This document shows, one piece after another, positions 20,797 to 52,446 of a stretch of 64,000 bases of DNA. The position numbers were made by a program, and so were the translations under genes. This DNA comes from an uncultured virus (IMG/VR IMGVR_UViG_3300023171_000012) (taxonomy: Duplodnaviria > Heunggongvirae > Uroviricota > Caudoviricetes): the IMG/VR virus record IMGVR_UViG_3300023171_000012; one strand, 5' to 3'. How positions within the stretch are numbered: the first letter of the stretch is position 1; each line of letters opens with the position of its first letter. The notes beneath the pieces were generated by a model. That model was not told the DNA's origin. It made no database searches and saw only the letters and a program-made list of their open reading frames with translations.

Positions 20797-22244
20797 AAGC
20801 GTGGGAGAAGTGAGAGGCTCACCGGGCGTGAGCGTAAGGTTTTCAATGCCCAGAAATGAGGTCTTTTATATCCTCTGGCAACGGCAATCGCTTTCAGCTC
20901 GGAAAAACTCCGGGCCTTCTGGACTTCCTCCTGCCGTTCTTCCTTCGTCTGTTCAACCTCCACCAGTTCTCCGTCCACCATCTTCATGGATGTCAGGGAC
21001 TTGGATTTTATCGGATAGAGGTAGCCGCAGAAAGGGCACGCCGGGGAAGTCTTGTGAACGGAGAAACAATCGCCACAGGTTCGGGTGGCAATCTCAGAAC
21101 CGCTGGAGGGTCTTTTCTTGGTGCCTTCGAGAGACCACTGGCGTTCCGTAGAAGCAAATTCATGCTTTGATGTATTGCCGACGTGATCGAGGATGTAGGC
21201 GAACGGCTTCGGACCATTGGCAATAGCTGCAAGTCTGCCTTCAGCCGTTTCGAGGTCATATCCATCCCCATAAATTGCCCGCAGCACTCGACCGATGAAT
21301 TGGAGATGAAGGATTAGGGACTTCGTGGGGCGGAGAAACTGGATGGCAGTGGCCGCAGGGACATCGAGACCCTCACCAATCAGATCGCAGAAAGTGAGGA
21401 CTTGGTATTTCCCAGTGCCGAGGCCCGTAATCCGGTCCTCCCGATCTTCGTCCGACATTGTTCCGTCCACCGAGACAGCGCGGTATCCGGCTTTCTGGTA
21501 TTCTTCGGCGACATGCTTGGCGTGGGCGATGCTCGTGCAGCATACCAACATGGGAACGCCGTCACAGATACGTTTGTAGTGGGCGATGGCATCTCCAGTA
21601 ATGGTGTTCTCATCCATCACCTCTTCCAAAGCTTCTGCTGCATAATCTCCGCCCCGACTCGGGACGTTGGAGAGATCAGCCTTCATCGGCGGAGCAAAAT
21701 ACCGCGCCGGGCAAAGGTAGCCCTGCCCCGTGAGCCAAGTGTTCGACGGGCCTTGGACCATGTGTTGGAAGATCTGCCCGAGTCCGGCTCCGTTCGTCCG
21801 AATTGGTGTGGCCGTGACGCCGAGAATTGAGGCTTCCGGGAATGCGTCGAAGACTTTCTTCCAGCTCGCACTTAGGGTGTGATGGCACTCATCAGCGATG
21901 ATAAGATCCGGCGGGGTGAGCTTCTGAAGCCTTCTCACCAGTGTTTGGATCGACGCGACTTGGGTTACTTTTTCCGGCTGGAAAAGTTCGCCCGCTTTCA
22001 CAATACCGTGTGTCACTTCGAAGCGATCCAGCGTGTTCGACGCTTGCCGGACAAGTTCCTGGCGATGGGCAATCACCCACACACTCATCCCGTCCATCTC
22101 CGCGTCCTTCAGCACTTGCGTGAAGATTGTAGTCTTCCCGGCCCCAGTGCTAAGAACGAGAATTACCGAACGATAGATATACCGCCAAGCCACATTGAGC
22201 GTCTGGCGCAGATCCTCTTGGTATGGACGAAGTATAGGGATCAT
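20793..22244 (-). CDS. Superfamily 2 helicase (DExH) with C-terminal Zn finger
   Basis: LRPYQ, TGAGKT, DECHH, TATP and QFIGRVLR motifs; CxxC...CPFCG. Confidence 0.92.
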   Translation of the reverse strand: MIPILRPYQEDLRQTLNVAWRYIYRSVILVLSTGAGKTTIFTQVLKDAEMDGMSVWVIAHRQELVRQASNTLDRFEVTHGIVKAGELFQPEKVTQVASIQTLVRRLQKLTPPDLIIADECHHTLSASWKKVFDAFPEASILGVTATPIRTNGAGLGQIFQHMVQGPSNTWLTGQGYLCPARYFAPPMKADLSNVPSRGGDYAAEALEEVMDENTITGDAIAHYKRICDGVPMLVCCTSIAHAKHVAEEYQKAGYRAVSVDGTMSDEDREDRITGLGTGKYQVLTFCDLIGEGLDVPAATAIQFLRPTKSLILHLQFIGRVLRAIYGDGYDLETAEGRLAAIANGPKPFAYILDHVGNTSKHEFASTERQWSLEGTKKRPSSGSEIATRTCGDCFSVHKTSPACPFCGYLYPIKSKSLTSMKMVDGELVEVEQTKEERQEEVQKARSFSELKAIAVARGYKRPHFWALKTLRSRPVSLSLLPRL

Positions 22245-22720
22245 ACTTCGAAATTATGGATTTCCCAGAGGTTGATGATGTCCTTCTTTTTCTTCTTGGC
22301 GTATTTGATGCAGTTCCCTGTTCCGCCCGAGCTTCCATCCCACAAGGCCAGCACTGCGTCTGATGCGTCCACCATGGCTTCGTTTCGCCACTGCATGCAA
22401 GCTGGGATGTAATCGCCGGGATGGATCAGCCGGACTTCACTACATTTTTGAAGAATTCGCTTGTAGAGTCTCTGGCTTTCTTCAGGCCATTGCTTGCTGT
22501 GACCCGCGCACGGGACGTAGGCATGGACCTCAATCTTGAGACGAATTGCGGCGACCGCCAGAGCTTGATCCCATCCGAGAGCCACGCCGGAAATCACCAC
22601 GTCACCATCGAGTAGATTGGCCTGAAGCCATACCTTTGCGGTGCTCACCAGACTCTCGAAGACGGGCTTCGAATATCCCCCGAGTTTGTTCGGGCGATGA
22701 CCTGTTCCACAGACGATCAC
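22241..22720 (-). CDS. YspA/SLOG-family (DUF1273-like) protein
   Basis: GTGHRP, SG.ALGWD, RN..MVD and WDGSSGGT.NC motifs; GTG start coupled to upstream stop. Confidence 0.8.
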   Translation of the reverse strand: MIVCGTGHRPNKLGGYSKPVFESLVSTAKVWLQANLLDGDVVISGVALGWDQALAVAAIRLKIEVHAYVPCAGHSKQWPEESQRLYKRILQKCSEVRLIHPGDYIPACMQWRNEAMVDASDAVLALWDGSSGGTGNCIKYAKKKKKDIINLWEIHNFEV

Positions 22721-22992
22721 CGCACACCTCCGGTCAGACGAAATGGTGGGATGTGTGCGATCACATTGTCCCGGCGTCCCCACGACAGGTCTTTCCGGCC
22801 ATCGGGATGAATGGTGATATGGGCCATGTAGCCGCACAGCACCAGACTGGGCATGCCACCGCAGTAAGCGGTGATAGCGTCGTGGAGGATCTTGCCTTCG
22901 TAGATGTGACGGACTTTCACGATGTCGCGGGCGAGGTCGTCCATGCGTTTCTGAAATGGCGACTTTGGGCGTTGGGGTAGGATGAAATTCAT
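22717..22992 (-). CDS. Hypothetical protein
   Basis: 91-aa ORF filling the operon. Confidence 0.5.
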   Translation of the reverse strand: MNFILPQRPKSPFQKRMDDLARDIVKVRHIYEGKILHDAITAYCGGMPSLVLCGYMAHITIHPDGRKDLSWGRRDNVIAHIPPFRLTGGVR

Positions 22993-22998
22993 AAGTAG

Positions 22999-25182
22999 TT
23001 AATCCTTAAGATAATAGGGTGCCTGTGAACCGTCACAATCGAGTGGAAATGAACTTGCCCATTCATCCCGCGTCTGCATGGCTTCCATGAATCCTTCTAA
23101 AGGTAGACTACCATCTGCGAGAGATAGAGCTTGGTCATGGACAATCAATCGGATGTCATAACCCCTGCGTTCGGCTTCGATGCAACCACGATTCAGGAGA
23201 CATGCCCCCGTTGCCTGAATGGCATTTTCAAAGACGCGGCTTCCAAAGGTAGCCACCCGGCCCCATGTATTGGTGAGCGAGATCTTGCCATAGAAACTGA
23301 TCTGGTCCACCCAGTAGCCGCCCTTCTCACGCTTCCATGGGGCTTCCACCATATCGGCTTCATCATATTTACGAAACACGGATTTGATCTGGGGACTGGG
23401 GTAGTAGAGTTTCCGACCACTGGGTAAGGTCATCACCAGATAAGAAATGCCCGCAGCCCGGCCACAGGTGAAAGATAGCCTTCCAGCACATGCCCCAAAC
23501 TTTTCCCCTGGCTTCCGAATGGCGTCACGAATAGCCTCTTCAATGTCGCGCCACGATTTGACCGTGCTCTGGTTGGTCTCCCGGTAAATCTTCACATAGT
23601 CATCACATTCCTTTCGAGTCCGAGAGACATTGTAGGGGGGCTTCGCCAGTGCTTCCATGAGGGCCTTGCCACCGACGCCAAAACAGCAACCCAGTACGAC
23701 TGGCTTCGCAATCGTGCGCTGCTCCTTGGTGACATCCTCATAGGGTATCTTGAAGAGTTTTGCCGCCATGGATTTGTACTGGTCGATACCTGCCACGATG
23801 GATTTCAGCCCTTCCTCATCACCCGCAAGCCAACTGGTCAACCGGGCTTCCACCCCTTTGTAGTCAATGTCATAGAAATAACCAGTGTGGGGCTGAATGA
23901 AATGTCGGATGCTGGATGCAATCGCCTCCAGGGGTGACTCCCACAATTCTTCGAACCAATCCAAGGAAAAGCCTTCGCATATCATCTGATAGCAAAGAGC
24001 AGAATGTTCAATGGTGGTCTTGCGGAAATTCTGCGGTTGAATGATACGTCCGGTAGCCCTCCCAGTTCTCGCTCCATGCCATTGGGTGGTGCCTTTCACC
24101 GTGTGATCCGGGCAAGCCGCATCCCTCATCACGGGCAGCTTTTTTAGAGCTGCGAAGCTGAGAAGTGAGCGCATGCGGAGAACTTCAATAGCGATGGGGC
24201 GCATGTCGGCTGGAGGTTTCTCCAGCACTTCCTCCACGGTGCCCGCCTGCAAGTCATTCTCCGGGTAGCCGCGCTCCCGCAACCATTCCAGCAGCTTCGC
24301 ACGTTGCCCGGAGGTAATGCCCTCGGTCATGGTGAGCACCCTGGCTTCCAGCTTCTCCTTATATTTCTCCACCAATATGTCAGCATGCCTCAGTGCCTCC
24401 ATGTTCACTGGCACCCCCCGGAAATTCATCTTCAGGTCGAACTGAAAACTGGCAAGCTCATCCCCCTTCAGTTCAAAATGCTTCAGCTTGTTGTGGAGTT
24501 CGCGTTCGACCTTTACATCGTTCCGGCAGTAAGCACAAAAGGTCTCCCATGCCTCACGCACGGTCATGAGGTTTCCTCCCACTTTTATCTGCCAATCCCA
24601 CAAGATTTCTTCATCCAGAATGGGATTATTCGACGTGCGGTTAGCGGGTTTTTTCCCAGCGGTGAAAGAACCATTCTTGAGCTGCTTGATGGTGTCAGGG
24701 TCTTTCATGCCAGGCGGCGGAAACAACGTAACCGACTTCGTTTGGATCGAGAACACGTCGATCAAAGACTTGCCGATGGCATCTTTCTTGTAACCCAGCC
24801 CAAAGAATTCTGCCGCCGCAGCGAGGGACTCAGGAGCAGCAGCACGTTTACACATTGCTTGGGTGCATCGGTACACGTCAAGAGAGTCTGGTGGTGATAT
24901 TCCAACATCCGCTTCCAAGCGTGACGCGGTAAGCGGGATCTCGAACGCAGCGTGATGGGCGTACAAGAGCTTTTGTTTCTGAATTCCATCATGGAGCATT
25001 GCCTCTGCCGCCAAAGATTCTTCACCAAAGGGATCTACGAAAGACCACAACAATGGCTCTCCCGTTGTCCCAGCAACAGCAAACATGAGAATCCGCGTAG
25101 AAGGGTCCGCAGCATAACGGTAAGAGCCTAACGAGATGTCGCAGGCAGAAGTGGTCTCGTAGTCAAAATGCAATTCATTCAT
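22999..25182 (-). CDS. Phage family A DNA polymerase with 3'-5' exonuclease
   Basis: ExoI DYET, ExoIII YC.NDV, GARTGR, motif A DYKGVEAR, motif B R..AK...LG..FG, motif C VHDQ. Confidence 0.92.
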   Translation of the reverse strand: MNELHFDYETTSACDISLGSYRYAADPSTRILMFAVAGTTGEPLLWSFVDPFGEESLAAEAMLHDGIQKQKLLYAHHAAFEIPLTASRLEADVGISPPDSLDVYRCTQAMCKRAAAPESLAAAAEFFGLGYKKDAIGKSLIDVFSIQTKSVTLFPPPGMKDPDTIKQLKNGSFTAGKKPANRTSNNPILDEEILWDWQIKVGGNLMTVREAWETFCAYCRNDVKVERELHNKLKHFELKGDELASFQFDLKMNFRGVPVNMEALRHADILVEKYKEKLEARVLTMTEGITSGQRAKLLEWLRERGYPENDLQAGTVEEVLEKPPADMRPIAIEVLRMRSLLSFAALKKLPVMRDAACPDHTVKGTTQWHGARTGRATGRIIQPQNFRKTTIEHSALCYQMICEGFSLDWFEELWESPLEAIASSIRHFIQPHTGYFYDIDYKGVEARLTSWLAGDEEGLKSIVAGIDQYKSMAAKLFKIPYEDVTKEQRTIAKPVVLGCCFGVGGKALMEALAKPPYNVSRTRKECDDYVKIYRETNQSTVKSWRDIEEAIRDAIRKPGEKFGACAGRLSFTCGRAAGISYLVMTLPSGRKLYYPSPQIKSVFRKYDEADMVEAPWKREKGGYWVDQISFYGKISLTNTWGRVATFGSRVFENAIQATGACLLNRGCIEAERRGYDIRLIVHDQALSLADGSLPLEGFMEAMQTRDEWASSFPLDCDGSQAPYYLKD

Positions 25183-25757
25183 GCTTGAACCCTCCCATGA
25201 TTTACGTGGTAGCCATATACATTTTCGGCGGACTTCCGCGCCACTGCTGCATCCTCCTTGCTATCAAAAACACCTAAATGGGTTAGTCTCCCGCCCACAG
25301 TAATGTTTGCTGTCCATTTTTGAATTCCTGTGTGCCAATGAACCCCCATAATGCCCGAAGTGTTTCGCTGGGGCCTAGCCGTATTTTTCTGGTTTTCGTC
25401 CCGAGAAATGGATCTCAAATTAGCCCACGAATTATCAAATGTTACGCCGTTGATATGGTCGATAAACTTTGGCTCTTCTCCTGTTACAATTTTCCAAATT
25501 ATCCTGTGAGCCAAATAAGGAACCCCATTTATGTAGCCATTCAGATAACCCGCTCTGTTTGACGTGTAGAAAGCTTCACTCCCCGGGTGCTGTGAATTCC
25601 AACTGGATACAAGCCTTTTGGGATACTTAATATCTAGATTAAAAGTCCAATCAGGCCGATGTTTCCAAACCAGTTTTCCGGAAATTGAGTCATATGACAG
25701 AATTTTTCGTAAAAGGTCTGCATCTGGCAGCAGTTTAATAGGGGCGCAGGTAATCAT
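25179..25757 (-). CDS. HNH homing endonuclease with AP2-like C-terminus
   Basis: AHRIIW...IDHING...DN...NLR and NTSGIMGV.W motifs; lower GC. Confidence 0.9.
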   Translation of the reverse strand: MITCAPIKLLPDADLLRKILSYDSISGKLVWKHRPDWTFNLDIKYPKRLVSSWNSQHPGSEAFYTSNRAGYLNGYINGVPYLAHRIIWKIVTGEEPKFIDHINGVTFDNSWANLRSISRDENQKNTARPQRNTSGIMGVHWHTGIQKWTANITVGGRLTHLGVFDSKEDAAVARKSAENVYGYHVNHGRVQA

Positions 25758-25820: not shown

Positions 25821-26381
25821 TTATGCTTCGAACTCCTCGTCTTCGTCGTCAGGAAGCTCCGGCATCACTGCCGTATCAACACGAGCACCGCCGAACGGTT
25901 CACCATCTTTGACGAACTGGACGATCTCCAGCGAACCGCAGATCTTGCTCCAGTTCTTGGGGACGAACACGCCGATGACGAAGTTGCAGTAACACCCTGC
26001 GTAGGGCTTGCCATCTTCGGGCATCAGAGCGCGGCGGGCACGGTCCACGACTTGTGGACGACCTTGGGTCTCCGCACGGTTGGCGGAGACGATCCAGCAA
26101 CCTTTGGAGTTCTCGTCACCGTCCTCGCCGTCACCATCCTTGATGAGCAGGTCTTTGGTTTTGGGCTTCACGCCCTTGAAGTTGACCTTGGCAAGGCGGT
26201 CGATCTCGGCGTCGATCCGGGCCTTGGTAGCCGTGTCGGATTTGGCGACGAGGATCTGGCATCCGTAGCGGGGCTTCGAGGTGGCGTCACCTTTGATACC
26301 TTCGGCCTTGAAGAGCTTCGGGTAGCCGAGGCGACCGCTTGGAATGAATACTTGGCCTTCTGGGAGTTGCGGAATTGTCAT
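25821..26381 (-). CDS. Single-stranded DNA-binding protein (DUF2815/Enc34-like) with acidic tail
   Basis: RL.YP.LF, DGD, YAGCY and QFVKDGEPFGG motifs; ends DDEDEEFEA. Confidence 0.85.
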   Translation of the reverse strand: MTIPQLPEGQVFIPSGRLGYPKLFKAEGIKGDATSKPRYGCQILVAKSDTATKARIDAEIDRLAKVNFKGVKPKTKDLLIKDGDGEDGDENSKGCWIVSANRAETQGRPQVVDRARRALMPEDGKPYAGCYCNFVIGVFVPKNWSKICGSLEIVQFVKDGEPFGGARVDTAVMPELPDDEDEEFEA

Positions 26382-26457
26382 TATCGTATTTGGTATTTTG
26401 AGTGATGCGATTTCTTGTGCGGCCTGCATCGTCCGGGCCTCGGGTGGTGAGAGTGTT

Positions 26458-27849
26458 TCAGACTTCGAAGTCGTCGATGGCCGCGAGATCCGGCAGCGCG
26501 TCGATGACAGGTGCCACAGCTTCCCGCTTGTCCGAACTGAGAGCGATGGTACGCTGTGGCTCAGAACGTGAGACCAGCTCCTTGAAGCGGTTCGCCGTTC
26601 TGGTGGATTTCGCGAGTTTCGCCTTCAGAGCTTCCTCCATTTGGGTGGGGGACTTCAAGATGAATTTGTAACGATCTTCCTGTTTCAGACCTTGCCCCTT
26701 GAGGAATGTGTCGGCGGCTTCCTCGTTGAGCCATGCCCGGTTTCCGGCGCGGCCGAGAACAATCTTCAAACCGGGAACGTTTTCTCCGGCCATGACGCGA
26801 GCTTCGAGGGTCTCCTCAACATCAGCGAGAAATTTAATGATGGCGGGTTTGCACTCCAGCAGCTTCACCAGATAATCGTCGGTGAGGGCTTCCCGAGAGA
26901 TGCCCGCCGCTTCAGCACGGAGCTGGATGCGGGTCTCTGGTGTTTCCTTGGCTTCCTTCTTGTCGAGATCCGGCAGCAACGCCAGCAGTTCCTCACCACT
27001 GGTGTCGGGCATTTCCAGACCTTCCACGGCGGCGGCGAGACGGGCATCACACCGCCCTTTGATACGGCACCAACGGCACGAGCCATTGTCTCCGTCACTC
27101 GGTGAGAAACGCAAGCCGGGAGCGGCTTCGAGGATCTCACCGCAACTGACATCTCGTATTTCGGAACGTTTGCTGATGATCTTGTCACGCACGCGCTCCA
27201 ATCCGGTGTTAGCTTGGATGGCGGCATACTCAATCGCTTCACAGAAGGTCTCCAGTTCGCCGAGAGTGATGACCCATGGCTGAACATCTTGCGCTTCACG
27301 GTGCCGGGGCTGGAAAACCCCGATGTTCACCACGGTGTCTGGTGTGAAGTTGTAAATGTCCTCGAACAACTTCACCAAGGAGTAACAATAAATTGCTAAT
27401 TGTTCGTTCTGGTAAGACTGCACCAGGACGCCCGCGCCGTGCTTGTAGTCGCGGATGATGACGAGGCTGTCGGTCACGACCGCCCAGTCGCAGGTTCCGT
27501 TCTGATCCGGCTGATACCATAGGGGAATTGAGACCTCCGTCTGGTAGCTCACACCTTTAGGGGCGAGCGCAAGGCAGTGGTTCACATAATCCGTGATGTA
27601 GGAGCGGAAATCGTCTGGCACGTCCTCAAGAGTGATCTCGTTCAAAAGAACTTTCGCTGCCCAGTCATGAGCATCGGTTCCAAGCTTTGAATACTCCGAA
27701 GAGTTGTCTGCTGGGATACGGTGCGAATTGGCCTCAATGAGGCTGATTGAGCCAGTGCATTTAGTCCATTGGTGGCTGCTGCTGGGCGAAAGCCGGGCAT
27801 GCGCTTGGTGGGAGCCGGAAGGTCCGGCAAGGGTGTTATTAGGTATCAT
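26458..27849 (-). CDS. Cas4-like PD-(D/E)xK exonuclease (DUF2800)
   Basis: HA.LSPS...W..C, GT.AH, GT.D, DYKHG.G, QL.IY and CRWC...C motifs. Confidence 0.88.
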   Translation of the reverse strand: MIPNNTLAGPSGSHQAHARLSPSSSHQWTKCTGSISLIEANSHRIPADNSSEYSKLGTDAHDWAAKVLLNEITLEDVPDDFRSYITDYVNHCLALAPKGVSYQTEVSIPLWYQPDQNGTCDWAVVTDSLVIIRDYKHGAGVLVQSYQNEQLAIYCYSLVKLFEDIYNFTPDTVVNIGVFQPRHREAQDVQPWVITLGELETFCEAIEYAAIQANTGLERVRDKIISKRSEIRDVSCGEILEAAPGLRFSPSDGDNGSCRWCRIKGRCDARLAAAVEGLEMPDTSGEELLALLPDLDKKEAKETPETRIQLRAEAAGISREALTDDYLVKLLECKPAIIKFLADVEETLEARVMAGENVPGLKIVLGRAGNRAWLNEEAADTFLKGQGLKQEDRYKFILKSPTQMEEALKAKLAKSTRTANRFKELVSRSEPQRTIALSSDKREAVAPVIDALPDLAAIDDFEV

Positions 27850-27854: not shown

Positions 27855-28403
27855 TTATCCGTGGTTGGCGAATTTGCCGTGTAACCGTTTTCTCGCATCT
27901 TCAACGGCTTTCGTCGCATCCTCGATGTTATCAAAGCTACCGAGATAGAGGTAAGGCCCTTTATTCTGACGAAGGCGGGCTATCCATTTGTTGGTGCCTT
28001 TTCTGAGTGAAACGCCTTTGACCCCTGAAGTGTTGTTACTCCGCAATTTAGAATTCTGAAGGTTTTCAAATCTACGAACCACCCGGAGGTTAGCGATTCG
28101 GTTGTCATCTCTGGAGCCATTTATGTGGTCCACATCGCCTTCAGGCCATTCTCCTGAAGTGACAAACATCGCAAGGCGATGAGCCAAGACCCGAACTCCA
28201 CAAACATCAATATGGCGATAGCCATTGTAGGCGATAAAACCTGCAATGTTTCCCACACATCTAGCATTCCATCTGTTTCTGAAATTGTCGTGTGGGAAAT
28301 CTTCCGCAGAACGTGGGTTCCAACGGAATTCACCTGAAAGCGGGCAATAATTGAGATGCTTGAGAAATTCCTCTTTTGTTTTTGTATTAGGCTTCGGTTT
28401 CAT
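27855..28403 (-). CDS. HNH homing endonuclease with AP2-like C-terminus
   Basis: AHRLA...VDHING.RDDNRIANLR, NNTSGVKGV and YLGSF motifs. Confidence 0.9.
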   Translation of the reverse strand: MKPKPNTKTKEEFLKHLNYCPLSGEFRWNPRSAEDFPHDNFRNRWNARCVGNIAGFIAYNGYRHIDVCGVRVLAHRLAMFVTSGEWPEGDVDHINGSRDDNRIANLRVVRRFENLQNSKLRSNNTSGVKGVSLRKGTNKWIARLRQNKGPYLYLGSFDNIEDATKAVEDARKRLHGKFANHG

Positions 28404-28600
28404 ACTTCAAACTCCTCTCCATCTGGTAGAACTATGCGGGATGTCATTGATGTTATTTCGTCGTTTGTGGCTTTGCGGATTCGGACATCCCAGTTACCGG
28501 GAACCCGGCGTCCATCGGGAAAGAAAGTTGGTGTGAAGGTGGACACGCCCCACTCGCCGTCGAGCATTTTGACGAGTCGCGGGGTCGTGTCGAGATTCAT
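28400..28600 (-). CDS. Hypothetical protein (66 aa) ending in EEFEV
   Basis: Stop coupled to the HNH ATG; shares the C-terminal motif. Confidence 0.55.
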   Translation of the reverse strand: MNLDTTPRLVKMLDGEWGVSTFTPTFFPDGRRVPGNWDVRIRKATNDEITSMTSRIVLPDGEEFEV

Positions 28601-28647
28601 GCAAGAGGTAGGTCGGCCGGAATTCCGGCCGACCAGGGTTGCGGGGT

Positions 28648-29106
28648 TCAGCCGATGATTTTCACCACATTGTTGTAGAACTCTTCCAGCTTTTCTTCGG
28701 GCAGTTCCGACGCTTTCTCGACACCCCACTCCTTGCGGATGGCCATGTAGGCGTCCTTCTGCTTTTGGAGGTTGGGACCTGCCTTGGCGAACGCGCCCTT
28801 GACGAATTCGGTGAGCACGACGAGGCCCTCTTCCTTGTCCTTGGGGAATGTGGACTCCGGGGTCTCACCGACGTGGGATTCAACTTCTGGAGCTGGCTCT
28901 TCGGCGGCAGGAGCCTCCGGTTCGGGTGCCGGAGTTTCGACTGGAGCCGGTTTCACGGCTTTCTCCTTGGCAGGCTTGACTGGGGCCGGAGTAGCGGCAG
29001 GAGCGGTAGCTTCACCGAGGCGTGCGGCGGTATTCGCTTCGACAGCGGAGACGAGTTTTTCAGTTGCGGCGATATTGGCGGCGAACAATTCTTCGATTGA
29101 TGGCAT
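28648..29106 (-). CDS. Hypothetical replication-module protein with A/P/E-rich linker
   Basis: Helical N-terminus, linker, small C-terminal helical domain; typical upstream neighbour of DUF2800-type genes. Confidence 0.65.
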   Translation of the reverse strand: MPSIEELFAANIAATEKLVSAVEANTAARLGEATAPAATPAPVKPAKEKAVKPAPVETPAPEPEAPAAEEPAPEVESHVGETPESTFPKDKEEGLVVLTEFVKGAFAKAGPNLQKQKDAYMAIRKEWGVEKASELPEEKLEEFYNNVVKIIG

Positions 29107-30175: not shown

Positions 30176-30204
30176 TTGTAGTGTAGGATTGTAGTATGTG
30201 TCAA
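30176..30204 (-). promoter_or_regulatory. Promoter with operator-like CTACAATCCTACA motif
   Basis: Minus strand reads TTGACA-CATA-CTACAATCCTACACTACAA; the -35 overlaps the primase stop. Confidence 0.5.
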
Positions 30205-32750
30205 AGGTCTTTTTGAATTCTGCTCAAAAGAATTTCATCCGCGCCGAGAATGCCCTCGATGTAGTTCTCCAGATGGACCCAGATCTGGGTTCTCATGCCG
30301 TCGATATTGAACATTTTGCCTTCTTCGTAAGCGACATAGCCAAGGGACGAGAGGTAGATTTCCACTTTTGCATTATTACGAGCCTCGTGCTCGGTGAGAG
30401 CATTCAGGTGGGCCATACTGATGACATCCTCGCCGATCATCAGGAAATCGGGGTCGGCGATGAGCTGCTCGGATTTTATCAGGAGATGGTTTTTGGAAGT
30501 CTCTACCATCTGACGACGGTATTTCGTATCCGGTGCTGGGCCGTTCACAGGGAAGTCCTCGGAGATTTCGTGGTTCATAAGATAGTGGCGGATCGCTCCG
30601 GGAAAATTGGCCACCATATTGTGGCACGCATCGAACAAATATCCCAGAGGTGTGATCTGGTGCTTGAACTGGAGCGGGCTGTAAATTACAAAGAAGCGGC
30701 GGTCGGATTCTTCAATGTGAATCGAGTTCTTGAAATTCGTGAAGGCGACAAAATTGACTAAATTTATCACGACACGCGGGTCTTTGAATTTCTGGTTCAG
30801 GCTCACCCGGTCATTGGTGATCGCGTCCTTGATCTTGTTCGCCACCTCGGCCCGGTTCTGCCCCGGTGAGAGAAGCTCGTCGAAGATCACCACTTGGCAT
30901 CCCGCCCGCCACGAATTGAAATCCGAAGACATAGCCCCTGGCGCGATGATGTTCACATTCGTGACACCGATGGCTGCGGAGAGAATGTCACCGAGTGTTC
31001 CCTTGCCCGCGCCTTGGCAACTCTGGATGATCGGTGCCCAGCGGATCTTGATCCCCGGAAACTGAACGATGAAAGAGATGAAATCCAAAATGAGTCTTTC
31101 GTGTTCGGCATTGCCGATGAGGCTCTTCAAAAGTTTCCGAATCCATTTCCCAGCCATTTTCGAATTCACCGCATCCATGGTGGGGACGGAACTGAGTCGG
31201 TATTCGTTGAGGTAGCTACGGCCTTCGAAATTGAACACGGGATCTGCCGCTCCGAAGCGCGGGTCATAGGTCACACCGTCCACCTTGGGGATCTTGCGGA
31301 CGTTGAGCGCATGGTTTACCGGGAGCACCGCAGGCTTGCCAGAGCGTGCCTGCTCGCTTTCACCGTCCTTCGGCATCAGGAACTCGGAAAAGGTGTTGTC
31401 GAAACCCGCAGGGCTGTACTCCACACCATTCATGGCATTGCGAAAGACGTTCTGCGAAGTGATGAAGTAAATCGGCCGGAGCCATCCTTCCAGTTCGCCG
31501 GAGGATTCCTCTTCCTTCGTCTTACGGCGGACGTTGTTCACCTGCCGCTTGATCGTGGCTTTGTCGATCCGGGTGCCCGAGAGGGTTTTTATCCTGTCCC
31601 GCAAGGCAATCACCAGAGCCTCCTCCACCATGTCGTTCTTGAACGGTAGCTCGGCGATGCGGGTTGCGCCTTCCTCTTGCAGGACGTTGCCGTCCTCACA
31701 CTCGGCGATCCATTCCAACACGCCCTGCTTCACTTTGGTAGCGAGCTTTGTCGGCACCCAGCCGTGCTCCTGGGCCATCATGAAGAGCGTGCGGATGGTT
31801 ACGGGAGCTTTTCCTTTCGGCTCAGGGGTGAAGGATTTCCATTTTGCGTATGGCTCATTCTCCTTGTATTTGTCACTGCCGCTGCTCCAGTCGTCGAACA
31901 GTTCGAACGCCGCTCTTGCCGAATCCGTGTCTCGGAATTGATGAATAAGCGACGAAATCACGCGAGTCCAAGGACCGTAGGTAATGTCTGGAGGAATGGA
32001 ACGGAGCACCGGCTCAATGTCCTCCACCGTGATTCCCATGAGAGGGAGGTATTGAAGAGAAGTTTCTTCGCTGCTTTCACCCCTCCAAGCATAGGTGCGC
32101 TCTGCCTCTTCCACTTCGTCTTCGCTCATCTCCGGTAGATCCACTACATCGAGCGGGTATCCCTCTGTCCTGCTGGCAATGACCGGGCTGTGGCTGTCTT
32201 CGCCGAGGAAGCTCACCGGACGGTACGCAGGTTGTGAGAGAACCGTAGTTTCACGGTATCCTTTGAAGTCTTTCGGAAGACCAAGACGCATCATCAAATA
32301 GCGCACGATCCGCTTGTGGTGTGCCAGATCACAAGACTTAACATCCACAATAATACGAAGACGTGGATTCTCCGGTGTAGAATTAGAAGTGTGATAAACC
32401 GCAAAATTGAAAGGCCACAAGTGCTCAATCAGCGTTTCGGGACTCTCGGCAAACTGCTTCGCTTCAATGCCGCCATCCAGATCGAAGCAGATCAATTCGA
32501 GCGACTCTGCATTATCATCACAGCGATGGGAGGTGCCAAGCTTGAATGACACTGCTGTCACGTATGGCCCGGCCTTGATTGCGTTACGCTCTCTCTCCGG
32601 TCTCGAACGAAAATCCTCTCGGGATAATTGGATTGGGACCGGAATGTTGATATACTTCTCAAGGAACTCCTTGAAGTTTTCAGCAGCAAGCGGGCGTATC
32701 GTAGCGTTGGACGTGGTTGAGCCACCCCAGTATTTTTGGTGGTCACTCAT
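30201..32750 (-). CDS. Primase-helicase (AEP-like primase, PriCT-2, DUF5906/SF3-like P-loop)
   Basis: FDLDG and PRLRII; W...I...F..WS....KY...KW.SF; QGAGKGT, FDE, FTN and DRRF motifs. Confidence 0.88.
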   Translation of the reverse strand: MSDHQKYWGGSTTSNATIRPLAAENFKEFLEKYINIPVPIQLSREDFRSRPERERNAIKAGPYVTAVSFKLGTSHRCDDNAESLELICFDLDGGIEAKQFAESPETLIEHLWPFNFAVYHTSNSTPENPRLRIIVDVKSCDLAHHKRIVRYLMMRLGLPKDFKGYRETTVLSQPAYRPVSFLGEDSHSPVIASRTEGYPLDVVDLPEMSEDEVEEAERTYAWRGESSEETSLQYLPLMGITVEDIEPVLRSIPPDITYGPWTRVISSLIHQFRDTDSARAAFELFDDWSSGSDKYKENEPYAKWKSFTPEPKGKAPVTIRTLFMMAQEHGWVPTKLATKVKQGVLEWIAECEDGNVLQEEGATRIAELPFKNDMVEEALVIALRDRIKTLSGTRIDKATIKRQVNNVRRKTKEEESSGELEGWLRPIYFITSQNVFRNAMNGVEYSPAGFDNTFSEFLMPKDGESEQARSGKPAVLPVNHALNVRKIPKVDGVTYDPRFGAADPVFNFEGRSYLNEYRLSSVPTMDAVNSKMAGKWIRKLLKSLIGNAEHERLILDFISFIVQFPGIKIRWAPIIQSCQGAGKGTLGDILSAAIGVTNVNIIAPGAMSSDFNSWRAGCQVVIFDELLSPGQNRAEVANKIKDAITNDRVSLNQKFKDPRVVINLVNFVAFTNFKNSIHIEESDRRFFVIYSPLQFKHQITPLGYLFDACHNMVANFPGAIRHYLMNHEISEDFPVNGPAPDTKYRRQMVETSKNHLLIKSEQLIADPDFLMIGEDVISMAHLNALTEHEARNNAKVEIYLSSLGYVAYEEGKMFNIDGMRTQIWVHLENYIEGILGADEILLSRIQKDL

Positions 32751-33577
32751 ACGCGGTTGCTGGTTCTTTTTTGTTTAGGTTGATTCACTGCGCGTTCTAC
32801 ACTTCCCCAACGTGAGATCCTGTTTTCTAAAAATTTGCGGTCCATGCCCAAATTCTCGGCCAAGTCAGGTACGGTTGTTTTCTTCCCTTTATACTGAATG
32901 AAGTGAGTAATCCGGCGATTGCGGAGTTGTTGCTTCATTGTTGCCCAGCGGCAGTTAGTTGGTTCATAATCCCCGTCGTTATCGACACGATCTATTGACA
33001 TGCCCTCTGGGCGATCTCCCATATCTTCGTAGAAATTTTTGAAGTCCTTCCACCGTTCACACACCCGAATACCTCGGTCATAGTAATTCTCGGGGCATGA
33101 CCTTCCTGTTCCTCGGGATATCAAAGACTTCCACGACGCATAAGCTCCTGACTTATACTGCCCATGCGTAGTTCTTAGTTCTTTACTAATACAGCCGCAG
33201 CTGCTTACTACTCCTCTTTTAATGGAGACAAGCTCACAGGATTTTTCTTGTCCACAAGAGCATCGGCATAAGACGCGCCGTTTCTTTTTTCCTGTGGTCG
33301 ATACAAAAGCAGGTTCTACCTCCCTCAAGACGGTCAAACGACCGAAGGTCTCCCCCACTGGGGCTGCATCCCTGTTCGGTTTTTTCCATTTATAGCAACC
33401 ACAACTCTTGACCTCGCCCTTTTTGACGCGAGTCAGAAGTCGAACGACCGCATTTCCGCAGTCACACCGCCACTCGATGGCCCGACGGGTTTGCCCTCCT
33501 GTTGTAACATCATCTTCTACATCTCTCAAAGCCGTGAGCATGTAAAATTTCCGACCTATGAAATCCTCGCGGCTCAT
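32747..33577 (-). CDS. HNH-like homing endonuclease with repeated Cys-rich DNA-binding modules
   Basis: Two C.CG...SCGC modules; RGI.VC.RW..F..F..DMG.RP...SIDR.DN...Y.P.NCRWAT...Q.RN. Confidence 0.85.
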   Translation of the reverse strand: MSREDFIGRKFYMLTALRDVEDDVTTGGQTRRAIEWRCDCGNAVVRLLTRVKKGEVKSCGCYKWKKPNRDAAPVGETFGRLTVLREVEPAFVSTTGKKKRRVLCRCSCGQEKSCELVSIKRGVVSSCGCISKELRTTHGQYKSGAYASWKSLISRGTGRSCPENYYDRGIRVCERWKDFKNFYEDMGDRPEGMSIDRVDNDGDYEPTNCRWATMKQQLRNRRITHFIQYKGKKTTVPDLAENLGMDRKFLENRISRWGSVERAVNQPKQKRTSNRV

Positions 33578-39845: not shown

Positions 39846-40030
39846 GGTTTCAAATGGTTTCGTTCTTCCGCACGACGGCGGGAATTGTCAGAGTCTCTCA
39901 GGAATTTTGGATCGGTTTTGCGGAGGTGTTCGTTCAATGCCTTCTTCAGGTCGGTGAACGTGTCGAGCGTCGGATCTCGGTAGCCGACGACCTTTTGTTG
40001 CAGGCGTGGGGGTGTGGCTCTGCTGTTCAT
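39842..40030 (-). CDS. Hypothetical protein
   Basis: Coupled at both ends. Confidence 0.45.
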   Translation of the reverse strand: MNSRATPPRLQQKVVGYRDPTLDTFTDLKKALNEHLRKTDPKFLRDSDNSRRRAEERNHLKP

Positions 40031-40614
40031 ATTTCGAAAGGTTTCTGTTTGAAAAGTATGGTGTTCCATTTCTTGGAAGCTTCAACCTTGCCGATGCGGC
40101 GGATTTTCACGATGTTCAGGCATCCGGCCTCCACATGGTCCAGAGACCAGTGGGTGCCTTTCACAGCGAGCACCGGACGCTTGCCGCAGGTCGCGCAGGG
40201 AGCCAGCGCATTCTCTTCCATGTATTTGTCCCGAAGATCCCTGGCCGCGCCGAGGGTGCGCCGGGTGCCGAGGTATTTCTTGTCCACGATGACCTTGTAG
40301 CGTTTCACCGTGAGAGCGAATTCAGTGATGCCGTGGTTGAGATCGAGCTTGTCCTTGAGGATGCGCTTCTTGGAGACCCGCTCCCCGCGCCGGATGGCCC
40401 CCTGCATGCAGAGCCGGGTGAACAGGATGTCCCGCTCCTTGGTGGCCTCTTCCTGGGTGGTGGCTTCGAGGTAGTGCCGCTCGCGCTTATCCCCAACGAC
40501 ATAATTGCAATAGTAGCGGTTCTTCTTCGTACACCACTTGGCTTCCTTCCCGCTGTCGGAGGGGAGGATGACCTGATGGCGTCCGAAGAAACCGGATGAT
40601 GGTTTGCTGCTCAT
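40027..40614 (-). CDS. Basic DNA-binding protein with two AP2-like modules
   Basis: R.R.YL..T.EEA...RD and YLGT..T...A...RD patterns. Confidence 0.55.
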   Translation of the reverse strand: MSSKPSSGFFGRHQVILPSDSGKEAKWCTKKNRYYCNYVVGDKRERHYLEATTQEEATKERDILFTRLCMQGAIRRGERVSKKRILKDKLDLNHGITEFALTVKRYKVIVDKKYLGTRRTLGAARDLRDKYMEENALAPCATCGKRPVLAVKGTHWSLDHVEAGCLNIVKIRRIGKVEASKKWNTILFKQKPFEI

Positions 40615-40850
40615 AGCCGTCTTGACCTCTTCTCTTTCTTCCTGAACTGGGCATACCATGGTTCATTGTTTTTGCGTCCCTGTATGAAGGGTGCCTCTGG
40701 TATCTGAAAAGGAGCTTCTATGATGAGGTCTTGCATTTTTTCTTTTGGCAAGGTGGTCCAGCCAACCTCAATCATCGTTGGCATTTCCGAATGGGTCATG
40801 CCAATCAGAAGTATCGAAAGGTTCGAGGGTAGTAAGCGTTTTCGGATCAT
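40611..40850 (-). CDS. Hypothetical protein
   Basis: Coupled at both ends. Confidence 0.45.
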   Translation of the reverse strand: MIRKRLLPSNLSILLIGMTHSEMPTMIEVGWTTLPKEKMQDLIIEAPFQIPEAPFIQGRKNNEPWYAQFRKKEKRSRRL

Positions 40851-43687: not shown

Positions 43688-44322
43688 GGTATGAAGTCGT
43701 AGAGGTTTTCAGACCATTGCGCTGCCATTGCGGCGGCAATGCCGGGGTAACTGCGGGCACGGTCTTTTGACCGGGTATCGGATGGCGGGAGTTTGTTTTG
43801 ACCGGAATCGGTCTGATTGGACCAGCGTTCCACCATCTTGCCTTTGTGCTCGACGATGCGGCCGGGGAAGCGTTGCGCGGGGTCCAGAATGAGGGGCGGC
43901 AGCTTGTGCAACCAGAGACAGGTTTTTTTAGAGGCATCCTCGCCGAATTCGTAGGGCTGGATGATTTGTTCCGGTTTGCGGAAATGGGTGGAGATGATCG
44001 AGACTGGGTTTTCGAGGTAGTGGGGGACATTTCCCGCCGCTTCGAAAAGATCCGCGACGAACCGAAGGGCTTTGTGGGTGTTCTCCCATCCCCGGCCACG
44101 GTTATTCCAATGGATGCTGCAAACGCCGAGGTACCGGCATTCGGGGTGTAAGCCTATGAAGTCCCACCCACCTTGGCGGATGGCTTCAAGGGCATCGCCC
44201 TGAATGTGGAACGGGGAGCCATCGTCAGCGGGTTGCAAGTCGCAGGACCAGGCATCATGCCCCCGGGCGCGGAACGCCTCACGGATCACGCCGGAACATT
44301 CGCAGGCAATCAGAACTTTCAT
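43684..44322 (-). CDS. Phage DNA cytosine methyltransferase-like protein
   Basis: VLIACE.SG, SCDL, HPEC (PPC-like), ENPV, IQP..FG, K.T.LW and RS..GIA.AMA.QW motifs. Confidence 0.8.
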   Translation of the reverse strand: MKVLIACECSGVIREAFRARGHDAWSCDLQPADDGSPFHIQGDALEAIRQGGWDFIGLHPECRYLGVCSIHWNNRGRGWENTHKALRFVADLFEAAGNVPHYLENPVSIISTHFRKPEQIIQPYEFGEDASKKTCLWLHKLPPLILDPAQRFPGRIVEHKGKMVERWSNQTDSGQNKLPPSDTRSKDRARSYPGIAAAMAAQWSENLYDFIP

Positions 44323-44582
44323 GGTGCGAGGGTTTCGAAGCCAGTGGTGACGGTGTAGTTCCATGAGGCGTTCCACAGTGAGGCGTGTTCTTCACTTTCG
44401 AAGTCAAACGCCTCATGGACCGTCTCAAACGCTTGCAACATCTCCTCATTAGGATCACAGAAGTCATGCGAGTGGCACACGTTCTTCGATTCCTCGGCGG
44501 CGTTGCGACGGTCAATCTCGGCGAGGTCAATCCCGCCTTCGTGAAGTAGGCGAACGAATTCCTTGGCAATGGTGTGGATCAT
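44319..44582 (-). CDS. Hypothetical phage protein
   Basis: C.SHDFCD.N..M..AF motif; coupled. Confidence 0.6.
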   Translation of the reverse strand: MIHTIAKEFVRLLHEGGIDLAEIDRRNAAEESKNVCHSHDFCDPNEEMLQAFETVHEAFDFESEEHASLWNASWNYTVTTGFETLAP

Positions 44583-47222: not shown

Positions 47223-47387
47223 TCAGGCTTCCGGGATTCGGTTCACACTCGCATCCGAGCGTTGAATCCGGCAGCGTCCATTCCAGTAGATGGCGGACAT
47301 TTCGATTTTGCCCTCATCCCATAGAGCATAACTCAGGGGGTTTGCTGAGAGGTAGGCGAGAGCTTCTTTCTTGGTGGGGAATTTCAT
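47223..47387 (-). CDS. 54-aa protein, duplicate copy 2 (not in ORF track)
   Basis: MKFPTKKEALAYLSANPLSYALWDEGKIEMSAIYWNGRCRIQRSDASVNRIPEA; near-identical to 47763-47927. Confidence 0.75.
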   Translation of the reverse strand: MKFPTKKEALAYLSANPLSYALWDEGKIEMSAIYWNGRCRIQRSDASVNRIPEA

Positions 47388-47762: not shown

Positions 47763-47927
47763 TCAGGCTTCAGGGATTCGGTTCACACTCGCATTCGAGC
47801 GTTGAATCCGGCGGCGTCCATTCCAGTAGATGGCGGACATTTCGATTTTGCCCTCGTCCCATAGAGCGTAGCTCAGTGGATTTGCAGAGAGGTAGGCGAG
47901 GGCTTCTTTCTTAGTGGCAAATTTCAT
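47763..47927 (-). CDS. 54-aa protein, duplicate copy 1; first gene of the leftward operon
   Basis: MKFATKKEALAYLSANPL...; differences from copy 2 are mostly synonymous. Confidence 0.75.
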   Translation of the reverse strand: MKFATKKEALAYLSANPLSYALWDEGKIEMSAIYWNGRRRIQRSNASVNRIPEA

Positions 47928-47959
47928 GGGTGTGAGGTGGTATCGGTTGACGGCGTTAC

Positions 47960-48390
47960 TCAACACCATGAATTGACTCGTATCAAGAATTATTTTCAAT
48001 GAAATTTAAATTAGTCATAAGTGCCTCAGTGACAAATAGCATTTACAAAAACCTTTTTCAGATTTTTGGGGAACTCTCTTCCCATATAAGAAAAGAAAAC
48101 GTGAAATGGGGGTAAAATAGGGTGAAAACACTCTTTTTTCTTTTTTACTTTTTCTTTTTCTCCTTAGGTAAAATTCTCTCTTATGTTTTTGACTAAATGT
48201 CTTTCAAGTGACAACTGATTAAAAATGAAAGATTTATGGGCCGCATTTAGGGTTGCAACAAGTCAAAAAGGTAAATGTCAAAATCAGGTAAAATCAGGGG
48301 AAAATGGTGAGAAGGGGGAAAATGGTGTGGATCGGGCGGATTGGTGCAAATACCTAAATGAGTAAATGCTAGACATGGTGACGGGTTTTT
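47960..48390. promoter_or_regulatory. AT-rich non-coding divergence region (candidate origin, genome end or control region)
   Basis: Sharp GC drop, A/T tracts and short repeats; genes diverge from here. Confidence 0.55.
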
Positions 48391-48403
48391 GGTAGTTTCC
48401 GGC

Positions 48404-49045
48404 ATGTCAAACAACAAAAACATAGGAGGCAGGCCGGGGGTTATTGTATTAAATGTCAATGGTGACAGCCGCAAATGGAGTAAGAGCCGGAAGCCCGTGA
48501 AGGTGGAAATCATCGCGCTAACAGTGCAAGGCGGAGAAATCAATTTGGATGGTGTGACGTATCGGGCGGAGACAATGCCGGGTTTCCCAGCAAATGGGGA
48601 ATACAAATTCGCGGAAGTCCGTGGTGCGGAGGTTGCGAAATACCCTAAGGGCCATGATCCAATTACCGGACTGAATGACGAGGGAATGAATCCAGAGGAT
48701 GCTGCCATGTACGCGGACATTATTGAGCATGCCCGGATTGAATACAGAGACCGGAAAGATTCCTCCCTCATGGATTGTTTCGTGGAGTTTCTTCACTTCC
48801 ACCAGCGTGATCCAGCCAAGGCGAGAAAGTTTTACAAGACGCTCGTGTTGGATGGGTGGTTGTCGCCGGACCGTGACACAATGGAACATGTCAAACTTGA
48901 GAGACGTCGCCGGGAGAAGGAAATGGAACCGACAGCGGAAGAGATGAGAGAATGGGAAGAGCGAATGAAGATCGAAATGGCGGACATGCCACCTATGCCG
49001 TTAACACGGGAAGAGTGGGCGGCGATTGAGGCTTTTGAGGTTTGA
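48404..49045 (+). CDS. Hypothetical protein ending in EAFEV
   Basis: TAGACA-N17-TAGTTT promoter 5 nt before the ATG. Confidence 0.65.
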   Translation: MSNNKNIGGRPGVIVLNVNGDSRKWSKSRKPVKVEIIALTVQGGEINLDGVTYRAETMPGFPANGEYKFAEVRGAEVAKYPKGHDPITGLNDEGMNPEDAAMYADIIEHARIEYRDRKDSSLMDCFVEFLHFHQRDPAKARKFYKTLVLDGWLSPDRDTMEHVKLERRRREKEMEPTAEEMREWEERMKIEMADMPPMPLTREEWAAIEAFEV

Positions 49046-49082
49046 CTTGTCGTTTTGTCATGCCTTGGCTAGCATCTGAGGC

Positions 49083-49706
49083 ATGACCGTTAAAAACCGG
49101 ACTAATTTGACGCCGGAAGCATGGGGCGAAATCAAGACTATGATCTGCTCCGGCGTTGGTGCTATCCAAGTTTCGAAACTCTTCAGTATCGGAATTGATA
49201 CGATCTATGGGCGGGCGAATCGTGAGAATTGGCCAACCCCCGGACGTAGGGCGAAAGCGATGAGGGCCGCACGGGCGGCGGAAGGGCCTGTTTCCAGCGA
49301 AATCCAGCCCCAAATCAGTAACTTTGAGACACAAAGTGTGCCAAGTCCGAAAGAAAAAGCAGAAAAGCCAGGAAATGTCGCATTTTTAGGGTCTGAAGAC
49401 GGGAAATGCGACGTTTCGATTCAGCAATCTCTCCTTTCCCTGATCGAAGCTCCCCCGGAAACGTTCCAATTGGAGTTTGGTAAGGTCATGCAACGTCTTA
49501 TTGCTGAGGGAGTTCCAAACATCGAGCCGCCGCGCAATATCAATGAACTGAAAACCATCGCCGCTCTATGGTCTAAGGCGAGTGGCCTTGACGCGAAAGC
49601 CAGTGGCCCGACCAATGCGCCACTGGTCAATCCCATGAGGACAGTTACTCGCCGTAGCTCGGGGACCGTGGTAGAGGTGGATGGGATAGAGGATTTCGAG
49701 GTGTAG
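49083..49706 (+). CDS. Putative terminase small subunit (N-terminal HTH), ending in EDFEV
   Basis: W..IK.....G.....S..F.I...TI..RA.RE.W pattern typical of TerS-like HTH; upstream of TerL. Confidence 0.55.
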   Translation: MTVKNRTNLTPEAWGEIKTMICSGVGAIQVSKLFSIGIDTIYGRANRENWPTPGRRAKAMRAARAAEGPVSSEIQPQISNFETQSVPSPKEKAEKPGNVAFLGSEDGKCDVSIQQSLLSLIEAPPETFQLEFGKVMQRLIAEGVPNIEPPRNINELKTIAALWSKASGLDAKASGPTNAPLVNPMRTVTRRSSGTVVEVDGIEDFEV

Positions 49707-50053: not shown

Positions 50054-50062
50054 AACCCCGCC

Positions 50063-51000: not shown

Positions 51001-51029
51001 GAATGTCTGTAACACCAGCGCACACCACC

Positions 51030-52049: not shown

Positions 52050-52077
52050 CACCACCCCGTCCGCGTAGGATTCTCCC

Positions 52078-52143
52078 CTCGCTGTTTCATGTGTGTATCT
52101 GAGACCCGTCTGTGCTTCCCTTAGTGCAGGCGGGTTTTTCTTT
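52078..52143 (+). ncRNA. Candidate small RNA (about 65 nt) with anti-start-codon seed
   Basis: TTGACA at 52046, unpaired TGTTTCATGTGTGTAT, then a terminator. Confidence 0.4.
52104..52143 (+). terminator. Intrinsic terminator
   Basis: ACCCGTCTGTGCT/AGTGCAGGCGGGT stem followed by a T run. Confidence 0.75.
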
Positions 52144-52182
52144 ACTTGACGACACCCCTACAATCTTGCAATCTGACGCCAG

Positions 52183-52446
52183 ATGAATGTTGAACAGTCC
52201 CTGCGTGAGATCACACGCCGCACCCCCAAGCCCCCGAATGTCCGTGCGGGACATGGCCAATGGATCGACCCCGCCCGCGTGGTCCAGGGACTTGTGGAGA
52301 AAGGCTGGAGTGTCTCCGACGCCGTGCGCGAGGTCATTGCCAGCCACAAGCTGCATCCACCGGACAAGGCATTCAAGGGCATCCGCGCCGCGTATTACGT
52401 CGTGGTGAAGCAGTCGAAGGAACCTGTTGAGGATTTTGAGGTATGA
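52183..52446 (+). CDS. Hypothetical protein ending in EDFEV
   Basis: TTGACG-N17-CAATCT promoter with operator motif just upstream. Confidence 0.65.
   Translation: MNVEQSLREITRRTPKPPNVRAGHGQWIDPARVVQGLVEKGWSVSDAVREVIASHKLHPPDKAFKGIRAAYYVVVKQSKEPVEDFEV

Follow-up and report, generated by a model that had tools for sequence, protein, structure and literature searches.

A 64,000-nucleotide stretch of DNA from an uncultured virus of the Caudoviricetes (IMG/VR record IMGVR_UViG_3300023171_000012), here called the window, encodes six proteins that end in exactly Phe-Glu-Val (FEV) and a gp2.5-like binding protein for single-stranded DNA (SSB) that ends in the similar FEA. The terminus is far more frequent than amino-acid composition predicts, it is retained in orthologues of several of these proteins, and in related phages the tails of different proteins change in step. 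The shared tail is probably a docking motif of the SSB and at least six further proteins for one socket, which itself probably lies in the exonuclease-SSB-polymerase module of the phage.

The FEV terminus in the window

The census is based on 97 genes, taken from our own rough gene call corrected with family matches rather than from a curated annotation. FEV-stop ends six of the 97, against 0.015 expected from amino-acid composition (Poisson P 1.6e-14), and Phe-Glu occupies positions -3/-2 in 11 genes, where 0.26 would be expected. A preliminary description of this DNA, made from its letters, had estimated that far fewer than one FEV end would arise by chance; the count of C-terminal tripeptides in the window confirms this. 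Inside the proteins of the window the tripeptide is not enriched (four occurrences, 2.9 expected), and it ends none of the 498 six-frame open reading frames (ORFs) of at least 40 residues outside the gene list. At the DNA level the degenerate pattern for FEV plus stop, TTYGARGTNTRR, occurs six times against 0.48 in shuffled sequence, and all six occurrences are the FEV gene ends. Chance and paralogy were considered as sources of the shared tail and rejected, the six proteins having no common family and the statistics being extreme.

On the minus strand the FEV proteins close with INLWEIHNFEV (stop at 22241), AAIDDFEV (26458) and DGEEFEV (28400), on the plus strand with AIEAFEV (49045), GIEDFEV (49706) and PVEDFEV (52446). 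The SSB of the window, on the minus strand, ends PDDEDEEFEA (25821), and its EEFEA terminus justifies the match to the SSB tail that had been claimed. Together with four weaker variants treated below, these make up eleven listed C-termini, all of which read as first reported, at the same stops and on the same strands. Among the six FEV ends Phe is encoded by TTC three times and by TTT three times, Glu by GAA and GAG three times each, and Val by GTA three times and by GTC, GTT and GTG once each; five stops are TGA and one is TAG. The 27 distinct FE-class tails of relatives are similarly mixed (TTT 16, TTC 11; GAG 18, GAA 9; TGA 15, TAA 12). Because synonymous codons and stops vary, and both strands are used, the terminus is selected as a peptide rather than as DNA, as the preliminary description had argued.

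Carriers of the tail

Four carriers (SSB, exonuclease, SLOG protein and a small protein of no known family) lie in a minus-strand block at 18-33 kb, an Enc34/Chi-type module for replication and recombination. The other three lie upstream of the terminase in a plus-strand block that starts at 48 kb and leads into an intein-bearing large terminase (53025-56042). The family assignments of the carriers agree with the claim that the tail sits on replication, recombination and packaging-region proteins.

The DUF2800/Cas4-like PD-(D/E)XK exonuclease (26458..27849, minus strand, 463 residues; PF10926, E 1.3e-52; phrog_69 exonuclease) has the tail ...DALPDLAAIDDFEV. Where it aligns with proteins of distant cultured phages, the match breaks off at residues 442-445; its last ~18 residues are thus an appendage to the nuclease fold. 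The gp2.5-like/Enc34-type SSB (25821..26429, minus strand, 202 residues; PF10991, E 1.2e-27) has the tail ...AVMPELPDDEDEEFEA and scores 97.2 bits against PF10991, whose curated cut-off is 26, which makes it a DUF2815/Enc34-type SSB; its profile matches in the PDB are 4jg2 (8.9e-43), 5odj (Enc34 ORF6, 1.5e-40) and 4klk (1.8e-35). In an AlphaFold2 model of the SSB the predicted local distance difference test score (pLDDT) exceeds 90 in the core and falls to 52 in the tail. The full-length fold, which was checked for docking of the protein's own tail back on the core, places the tip at pLDDT 52-65, that is, with low confidence.

The YpsA/DprA-like SLOG protein (22241..22837, minus strand; PF06908, E 5.7e-11) has 159 residues if it starts at 22720 and 198 if it starts at 22837, and ends NLWEIHNFEV. 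The small protein encoded at 28400..28729 (minus strand, 66 or 109 residues) ends RIVLPDGEEFEV and carries the full LPD...EEFEV module found on the exonucleases. It has no Pfam or PHROG family match, Pfam searches up to E 5 giving nothing usable, and no homologue in the fetched loci; the stop of its gene overlaps the start of the HNH gene at 27855-28403. Of the plus-strand carriers, the protein of unknown family at 48389..49045 (182 or 218 residues), which ends MPPMPLTREEWAAIEAFEV, is likewise without a Pfam match up to E 5 that could be used, and without a PHROG match. Its start is uncertain (48389 or 48497), as is that of the SLOG protein; the C-termini are unaffected. The TerS-like protein (49083..49706, 207 residues) has an N-terminal helix-turn-helix (HTH) and ends VVEVDGIEDFEV; in the protein atlas the cluster closest to it is 'putative prophage terminase small subunit' (score 0.95), which serves as a lead only. 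The last carrier, p87 (52183..52446), is an 87-residue four-helix protein encoded three genes upstream of the large terminase and ends KEPVEDFEV; its gene keeps this position relative to TerL in the related contig G001:C1 described below. Its model is helical at moderate confidence (pLDDT 73.8), with tail residues 83-87 below 50, and its fold has no PDB match at E 0.001, the best rows including a Mu transposase DNA-binding subdomain at probability 0.57. An (L/M)P(D/E)(L/M)-like element precedes the motif on the exonuclease, the SSB and two small proteins.

Retention and joint change in related phages

The tails were compared across 80 metagenome loci, one viral locus and one 68.5-kb contig of a Phycisphaerales metagenome-assembled genome (MAG; contig G001:C1), all collected around relatives of the exonuclease. 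Cultured phages offer no close relative: the window has no DNA match among 50,697 phage records, and its exonuclease is less than 30% identical to any phage record. Viral contig scans with the polymerase and with a 759-residue protein returned nothing, and the scan with the exonuclease returned one locus. The best 120 exonuclease homologues, 45-75% identical and including the protein of the window itself, end in FEV in 47 cases (46 of 119 without it), in FEI in 5, FEL in 2, YEV in 3, YEI in 1, DEV in 14, EEV in 3 and xFE in 18. DFEV is kept in four of six p87 orthologues (73-80% identical), even though the linker in front of it differs by up to 18 residues, and the only homologue found for the TerS-like protein, P0122 (39% identical), ends AEDFEV. 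Primases of seven related loci (L002, L009, L011, L016, L022, L040 and L053) end FEI or FEV, as in DEFEI and DFEV.

The SLOG orthologue of L002 (52% identical) ends YDFEV. None of the 150 best representatives of the SLOG family has an FEV end, and the tail is therefore an addition within this lineage. SLOG homologues of other lineages (P0225, P0145, P0189) end in EEDIPF, the bacterial SSB tip, or in the T7-like GDF or KDF; the family may repeatedly acquire whichever SSB-type tail its genome uses. The proposal that orthologues keep FEV at the terminus thus stands for many exonuclease homologues, the TerS-like protein, the majority of p87 proteins and the SLOG protein of L002, and fails for the remaining p87 and SLOG orthologues, to which we return below.

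Within a phage the exonuclease tail and the SSB tail match with few exceptions, and across 52 related loci the two change together. The tail classes, given as exonuclease/SSB, are FEV/FEA, EPEFE/GEGFE, SEEV/EDDV, SEDI/DDDI, EFAI/GFDV, PEGMMD/PEGMMD and AADLI/ASDLV; L059 has PEGMMD on both proteins, L012 pairs EPEFE with GEGFE, and xFE ends occur in L012-L014. Of 53 exonuclease/SSB pairs 36 are distinct, and for these the last four residues give a BLOSUM similarity of 287, compared with 18 +/- 35 after shuffling, in a test that ignores relatedness among tail classes that are partly clade-specific; none of 20,000 shuffles reaches the observed value. Independent switches of tail class, counted by eye and without a tree, number about 8 to 10. 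Further families follow the rule: primases of relatives and the SLOG protein of L002 do so with the FEI and FEV ends given above, and p87 does so in G001:C1, where its orthologue ends TFELQ next to AFDLS on the exonuclease and SFGLE on the SSB. Both the retention of the tails and their joint change are expected from a common docking partner.

Within the FE class the last residue tends to go with the protein: among distinct tails it is Val in 10 of 15 exonucleases, Ala in five of six SSBs and Ile in four of five primases. In L011, L016 and L022 all three occur in one phage, the exonuclease ending FEV, the SSB FEA and the primase FEI.

Relation to known C-terminal tails

Tails of this kind are not confined to the uncultured clade: cultured phages that possess the module share tails too, though of other sequences. 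In Klebsiella phage Soft (Casjensviridae), nine of 87 annotated genes end [DE][DE]V, namely those for the primase, a putative RecT, the exonuclease, the SSB, the small terminase, a second exonuclease, a PAPS-reductase-like protein and two hypothetical proteins. Five genes of Ruegeria phage V16 end DLLA, DLLG or DILG, and E. coli phage 689R2 has ADLI at the end of its exonuclease and EALI at that of its SSB. In T7, gp2.5 ends DEDGDF and gp4 ends SNDTDF, and these are the only two proteins that share a tail among the 56 coding sequences listed.

Work from the Richardson laboratory is said to have established that the T7 gp2.5 and gp4 tails bind the gp5 DNA polymerase and are interchangeable. The likeness to the present case is close, for in both a gp2.5-type SSB and other replication proteins share an acidic, disordered tail with one Phe. 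The SSB of the window carries such a tail at its extreme C-terminus, and the same tail recurs on its exonuclease, on the SLOG protein and on four other proteins of the window, as well as on primases in relatives. There are differences: the aromatic residue is the last one in T7 (...DF), whereas the Phe of the window tails stands at -3 and is followed by Glu and Val, Ala or Ile, with a sister class in relatives that ends ...FE. T7 has two carriers, but the window has at least seven, among them proteins outside the replisome (a nuclease, a SLOG protein and terminase-side proteins), and in its relatives the last residue of the tail tends to depend on which protein family carries it. A transfer of the tail-binding patches of the T7 polymerase onto the polymerase of the window was tried and abandoned, the two being too divergent (best BLASTP E 0.30 against T7 gp5).

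A further related case is the DUF2815 SSB ORF6 of Enterobacter phage Enc34 (PDB 5odj, 5odk, 5odl), which belongs to the same SSB family and lies in the same exonuclease-SSB-polymerase gene order. According to the accessible part of the Enc34 SSB paper, gp2.5 interacts with the polymerase and the primase-helicase via its tail, and ORF6 has a disordered acidic tail, which by the printed cloning primer ends ...WDEDEV. That part of the paper describes the SSB tail only and does not mention tails on the exonuclease, primase or terminase. A duf2800-gp2.5-polA module is described in the part of PMC8093625 that was available. The literature covered, with subscription journals largely outside its scope, holds no description of one tail common to more than two phage proteins, nor of such a tail on DUF2800 exonucleases or terminases; no tail shared by more than two phage proteins is described in the available portions of PMC5686142, PMC8093625 and bioRxiv 10.64898/2026.10.21.760695. 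The earlier remark that no shared tag of this kind had been described is thus right for more than two proteins, as far as the literature covered goes, and goes too far for two, since T7 gp2.5 and gp4 already share an acidic ...DF tail. The shared tail is best read as a version of the T7-type docking tails that enlarges the two-protein gp2.5/gp4 system. What this case adds is the aromatic F-E-V version in an uncultured clade, a last residue that tends to vary with the carrier family, a SLOG protein with an acquired tail, and covariation in a terminase-side protein.

The tip of bacterial SSB (...DDDIPF), an interaction hub, resembles the tails of the window: in both cases an acidic, disordered tail has a hydrophobic tip, whose free C-terminus is what a partner reads, or in the window would read. 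In the bacterial case, however, one tail serves many partner sockets, whereas in the window many tail carriers presumably serve one socket. The sequences differ as well, FEA/FEV in the window standing against DDIPF in the cellular SSB of the MAG. That SSB ends ADDIPF while the tails of G001:C1 are FDLS, FGLE and FELQ, and these phage tails thus do not mimic the host SSB tip, provided that the bin represents the host, as is assumed here.

In phage T4, gp43, gp55 and gp33 share a C-terminal peptide that plugs into the sliding clamp and couples replication to late transcription. There too, unrelated phage proteins share a C-terminal peptide for one hub; the T4 motif is, however, unrelated in sequence to FEV. 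No sliding-clamp gene was found among the scanned proteins of the window, about 8 kb of the 72,094-bp contig on which the record of its exonuclease lies being outside it.

A common socket and its candidates

In the docking reading, [D/E]-x-F-E-[V/A/I]-COOH would be a short linear motif on a disordered tail, borne by the phage SSB just as gp2.5-type SSBs bear their partner-binding tail. The same plug would be present on the Cas4-like exonuclease, the SLOG protein, the TerS-like HTH protein, the terminase-side helical protein and two proteins of unknown family, and because it is the plug of the SSB, all carriers would be able to occupy the SSB-tail socket. That socket would most likely lie on a phage-encoded protein of the conserved exonuclease-SSB-polymerase module, whose genes stand side by side in nearly all related loci. 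The family A DNA polymerase (22999..25182, minus strand, 727 residues; PF00476, with PDB matches to Pol I), which has no tail of its own, is the leading candidate as a first guess by analogy with T7. The OB groove of the SSB itself is the predicted second candidate; in crystals the proximal SSB tail lies in the SSB groove, as reported in the accessible part of the Enc34 SSB paper. Polymerase columns that separate F from non-F tail classes number 64 to 112, but they are uninformative because the non-F set is a single clade. The terminase-side carriers and the tailed TerS of phage Soft support, though do not prove, a link between replication/recombination and packaging.

Several observations weigh against the docking reading, in addition to the relatedness that the shuffle test leaves aside. 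In L002 the exonuclease ends DFEV but the SSB ends DDDI. Two of the six p87 orthologues (59-65% identical) lack the tail, the SLOG orthologues of L012 and L025 have no FEV end, and the DUF5906/PriCT-2 primase-helicase of the window (Pfam; 30201..32750, minus strand, 849 residues) is without the tail that several relatives carry, ending SRIQKDL. Further ORFs bearing the tail of their own locus are modestly enriched (0.29 per locus; control, 0.09). The polymerase is not clearly the partner that co-evolves with the tails: phages with FEV-class tails have polymerases of two subtypes (C-termini YYxKD and RSYCKS) only about 30% identical to each other, which is compatible with binding but does not prove it. 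Against the SSB groove, no column of the SSB core separates F-class from non-F-class tails.

A wider proposal, possible but somewhat doubtful in our judgement, is a phage-wide address tag: one phage hub socket would serve at least seven clients in replication, recombination and packaging. Val on the exonuclease, Ala on the SSB and Ile on the primase would then set an order of affinities, and competition among the clients would time the transition from replication to recombination and then to packaging. Socket and plugs would drift together, a joint drift that would make the DNA machinery of each phage private.

Alternative explanations

The tails could be alike with no common receptor, if each acidic tail mimics DNA and shields the DNA-binding site of its own protein, the likeness being a reused physico-chemical solution; we consider this unlikely. 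The acidic tail of gp2.5 is known as a DNA mimic that shields its own binding site, and most of the carriers in the window are DNA-handling proteins. Crystals show the tail in the concave sheet of a neighbour for Enc34 ORF6, for two DUF2815 proteins and for T7 gp2.5, and removal of the tail alters DNA discrimination, both according to the available part of the Enc34 paper. That tail class is followed by no SSB-core column also fits shielding. Acidity cannot, however, explain an invariant F-E-V at a fixed distance from the carboxylate beside variable linkers, and it leaves unexplained both the pairing statistic and the identical unusual tails within one phage, such as the PEGMMD and xFE ends noted above. 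Moreover, the tails of the SLOG protein and p87 are weakly acidic, with a net charge of -2 over the last 12 residues. A reader supplied by the host is a still less probable alternative to a phage socket: a PDZ-type or ClpX-type protease or adaptor that sets half-life, or the host proteins that read the host SSB tail. Hydrophobic-x-hydrophobic-COOH is the class II PDZ ligand pattern, into which F-E-V fits. Pfam and PHROGs scans found no PDZ, TPR or clamp domain among the scanned proteins of the window, which leaves room for a host reader, and some SLOG homologues elsewhere carry the bacterial SSB tip EEDIPF. On the other hand, closely related hosts harbour phages with different tails (DDDV in Klebsiella phage Soft, ADLI/EALI in E. 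coli phage 689R2), and the tail differs even among close relatives of the window, which suggests that the partner travels with the phage. The divergence of the G001:C1 tails from the cellular SSB of the MAG, if the bin is the host, points the same way. A degradation tag, offered earlier as one option, found no support: the tails are acidic and end FEV or FEA, unlike the non-polar, LAA-like ssrA/ClpX tag, and one of them is carried by the SSB, a protein needed in bulk, on which such a tag would be implausible.

The motif might also be the by-product of a signal in the nucleic acid where genes end, one that serves translational coupling, forms a ribosome-binding site for the following gene or provides a termination context, with the peptide incidental, and of all the explanations this one seems the most improbable by far. 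Three of the six FEV stops read GTATGA, in which ATGA overlaps the next start, the genome does show a habit of this kind at its gene junctions (of the 97 genes 16 have a terminal Pro, with the string CCATGA in 13), and TTYGARGT is somewhat over-represented overall (23 occurrences, 8.9 expected). Yet all synonymous positions vary, in the window and in its relatives, and behind the other three FEV stops there is no overlap but a gap, of 28, 37 and more than 50 bases. The Pro ends use one codon almost throughout and the FEV ends do not, and the motif tracks the protein family across loci whose downstream genes differ.

Weaker variants and neighbouring genes

The weaker variants YFEA (6364), PFEI (40027), AFES (5754) and GFEF (42273) are present in the sequence as first described, but two of them do not hold as members of the tag set. 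GFEF lies inside a domain that is conserved in unrelated Serratia, Erwinia and Sinorhizobium phages, and the 45%-identical G001 orthologue of the AFES protein, the one orthologue seen, ends PVEG; both are discounted as tags and probably stand outside the set. The other two are possible weak variants, with no family match and a basic context: a small protein ending KREYFEA (5996..6364, plus strand) and a protein ending KQKPFEI (40027..40659, minus strand).

The replication block also contains an SNF2-type helicase (20793-22244, minus strand). Four HNH endonuclease genes are scattered through the module (25179-25757, 27855-28403 and 32747-33577 on the minus strand, 35233-35595 on the plus strand), and two of them, phrog_99 paralogues, lie on either side of the SSB-exonuclease pair. 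These genes probably encode free-standing homing endonucleases. Beside an HD phosphohydrolase lies a MazZ-like dATP/dGTP diphosphohydrolase N-terminal domain, PF18909 (19072-19578 and 19760-20413, minus strand). The pair gives a hint that the nucleotide pool may be edited for the sake of a modified base. The window showed no PurZ-like gene. The intein of the large terminase (53025-56042, plus strand) combines a Hint domain (PF05203) with a homing endonuclease (PF05204) at about residues 113-455. The TerL of G001:C1 (51-54% identical) aligns to residues 6-112 and 456-981 only and is without the intein. The interval from the TerS-like carrier to the terminase region encodes an HTH_31 protein and, after it, a serine recombinase (Resolvase, PF00239; 50063-51000, plus strand). 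A 2250-residue protein (10356-17108, plus strand) has no Pfam family and matches phrog_11358/2859 only locally. Its counterpart in G001:C1 is 26% identical and has 2676 residues; a role in the tail or in injection is presumed.

Other gene ends of the window are also patterned. The 16 Pro ends among 97 genes (e.g., 20410-20796, 34321-34593 and 44319-44582) compare with a background of 5.6%, and CCA is the last codon in nine of 35 ATGA stop/start overlaps, which indicates a junction preference at the DNA level. Two small minus-strand genes (47223-47387 and 47763-47969) share their last eight residues, SVNRIPEA, and are probably paralogues for that reason; the gene at 63520-63744 likewise ends PEA.

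Implications for phage biology

If all the tails plug into one socket, a five-residue peptide organises much of the DNA metabolism of the phage. One socket shared by all carriers would give a molecular handle to the link between replication/recombination and packaging, a link that has been argued for but rarely been given one. The Chi-like Casjensviridae are cultured relatives with the same habit, which makes the idea directly testable. Annotation would gain as well, since a protein of unknown function that ends in the SSB tail of its own phage could be marked as one that serves the DNA machinery. Finally, that the tails change together so rapidly suggests a barrier to the mixing of replication modules between phages.

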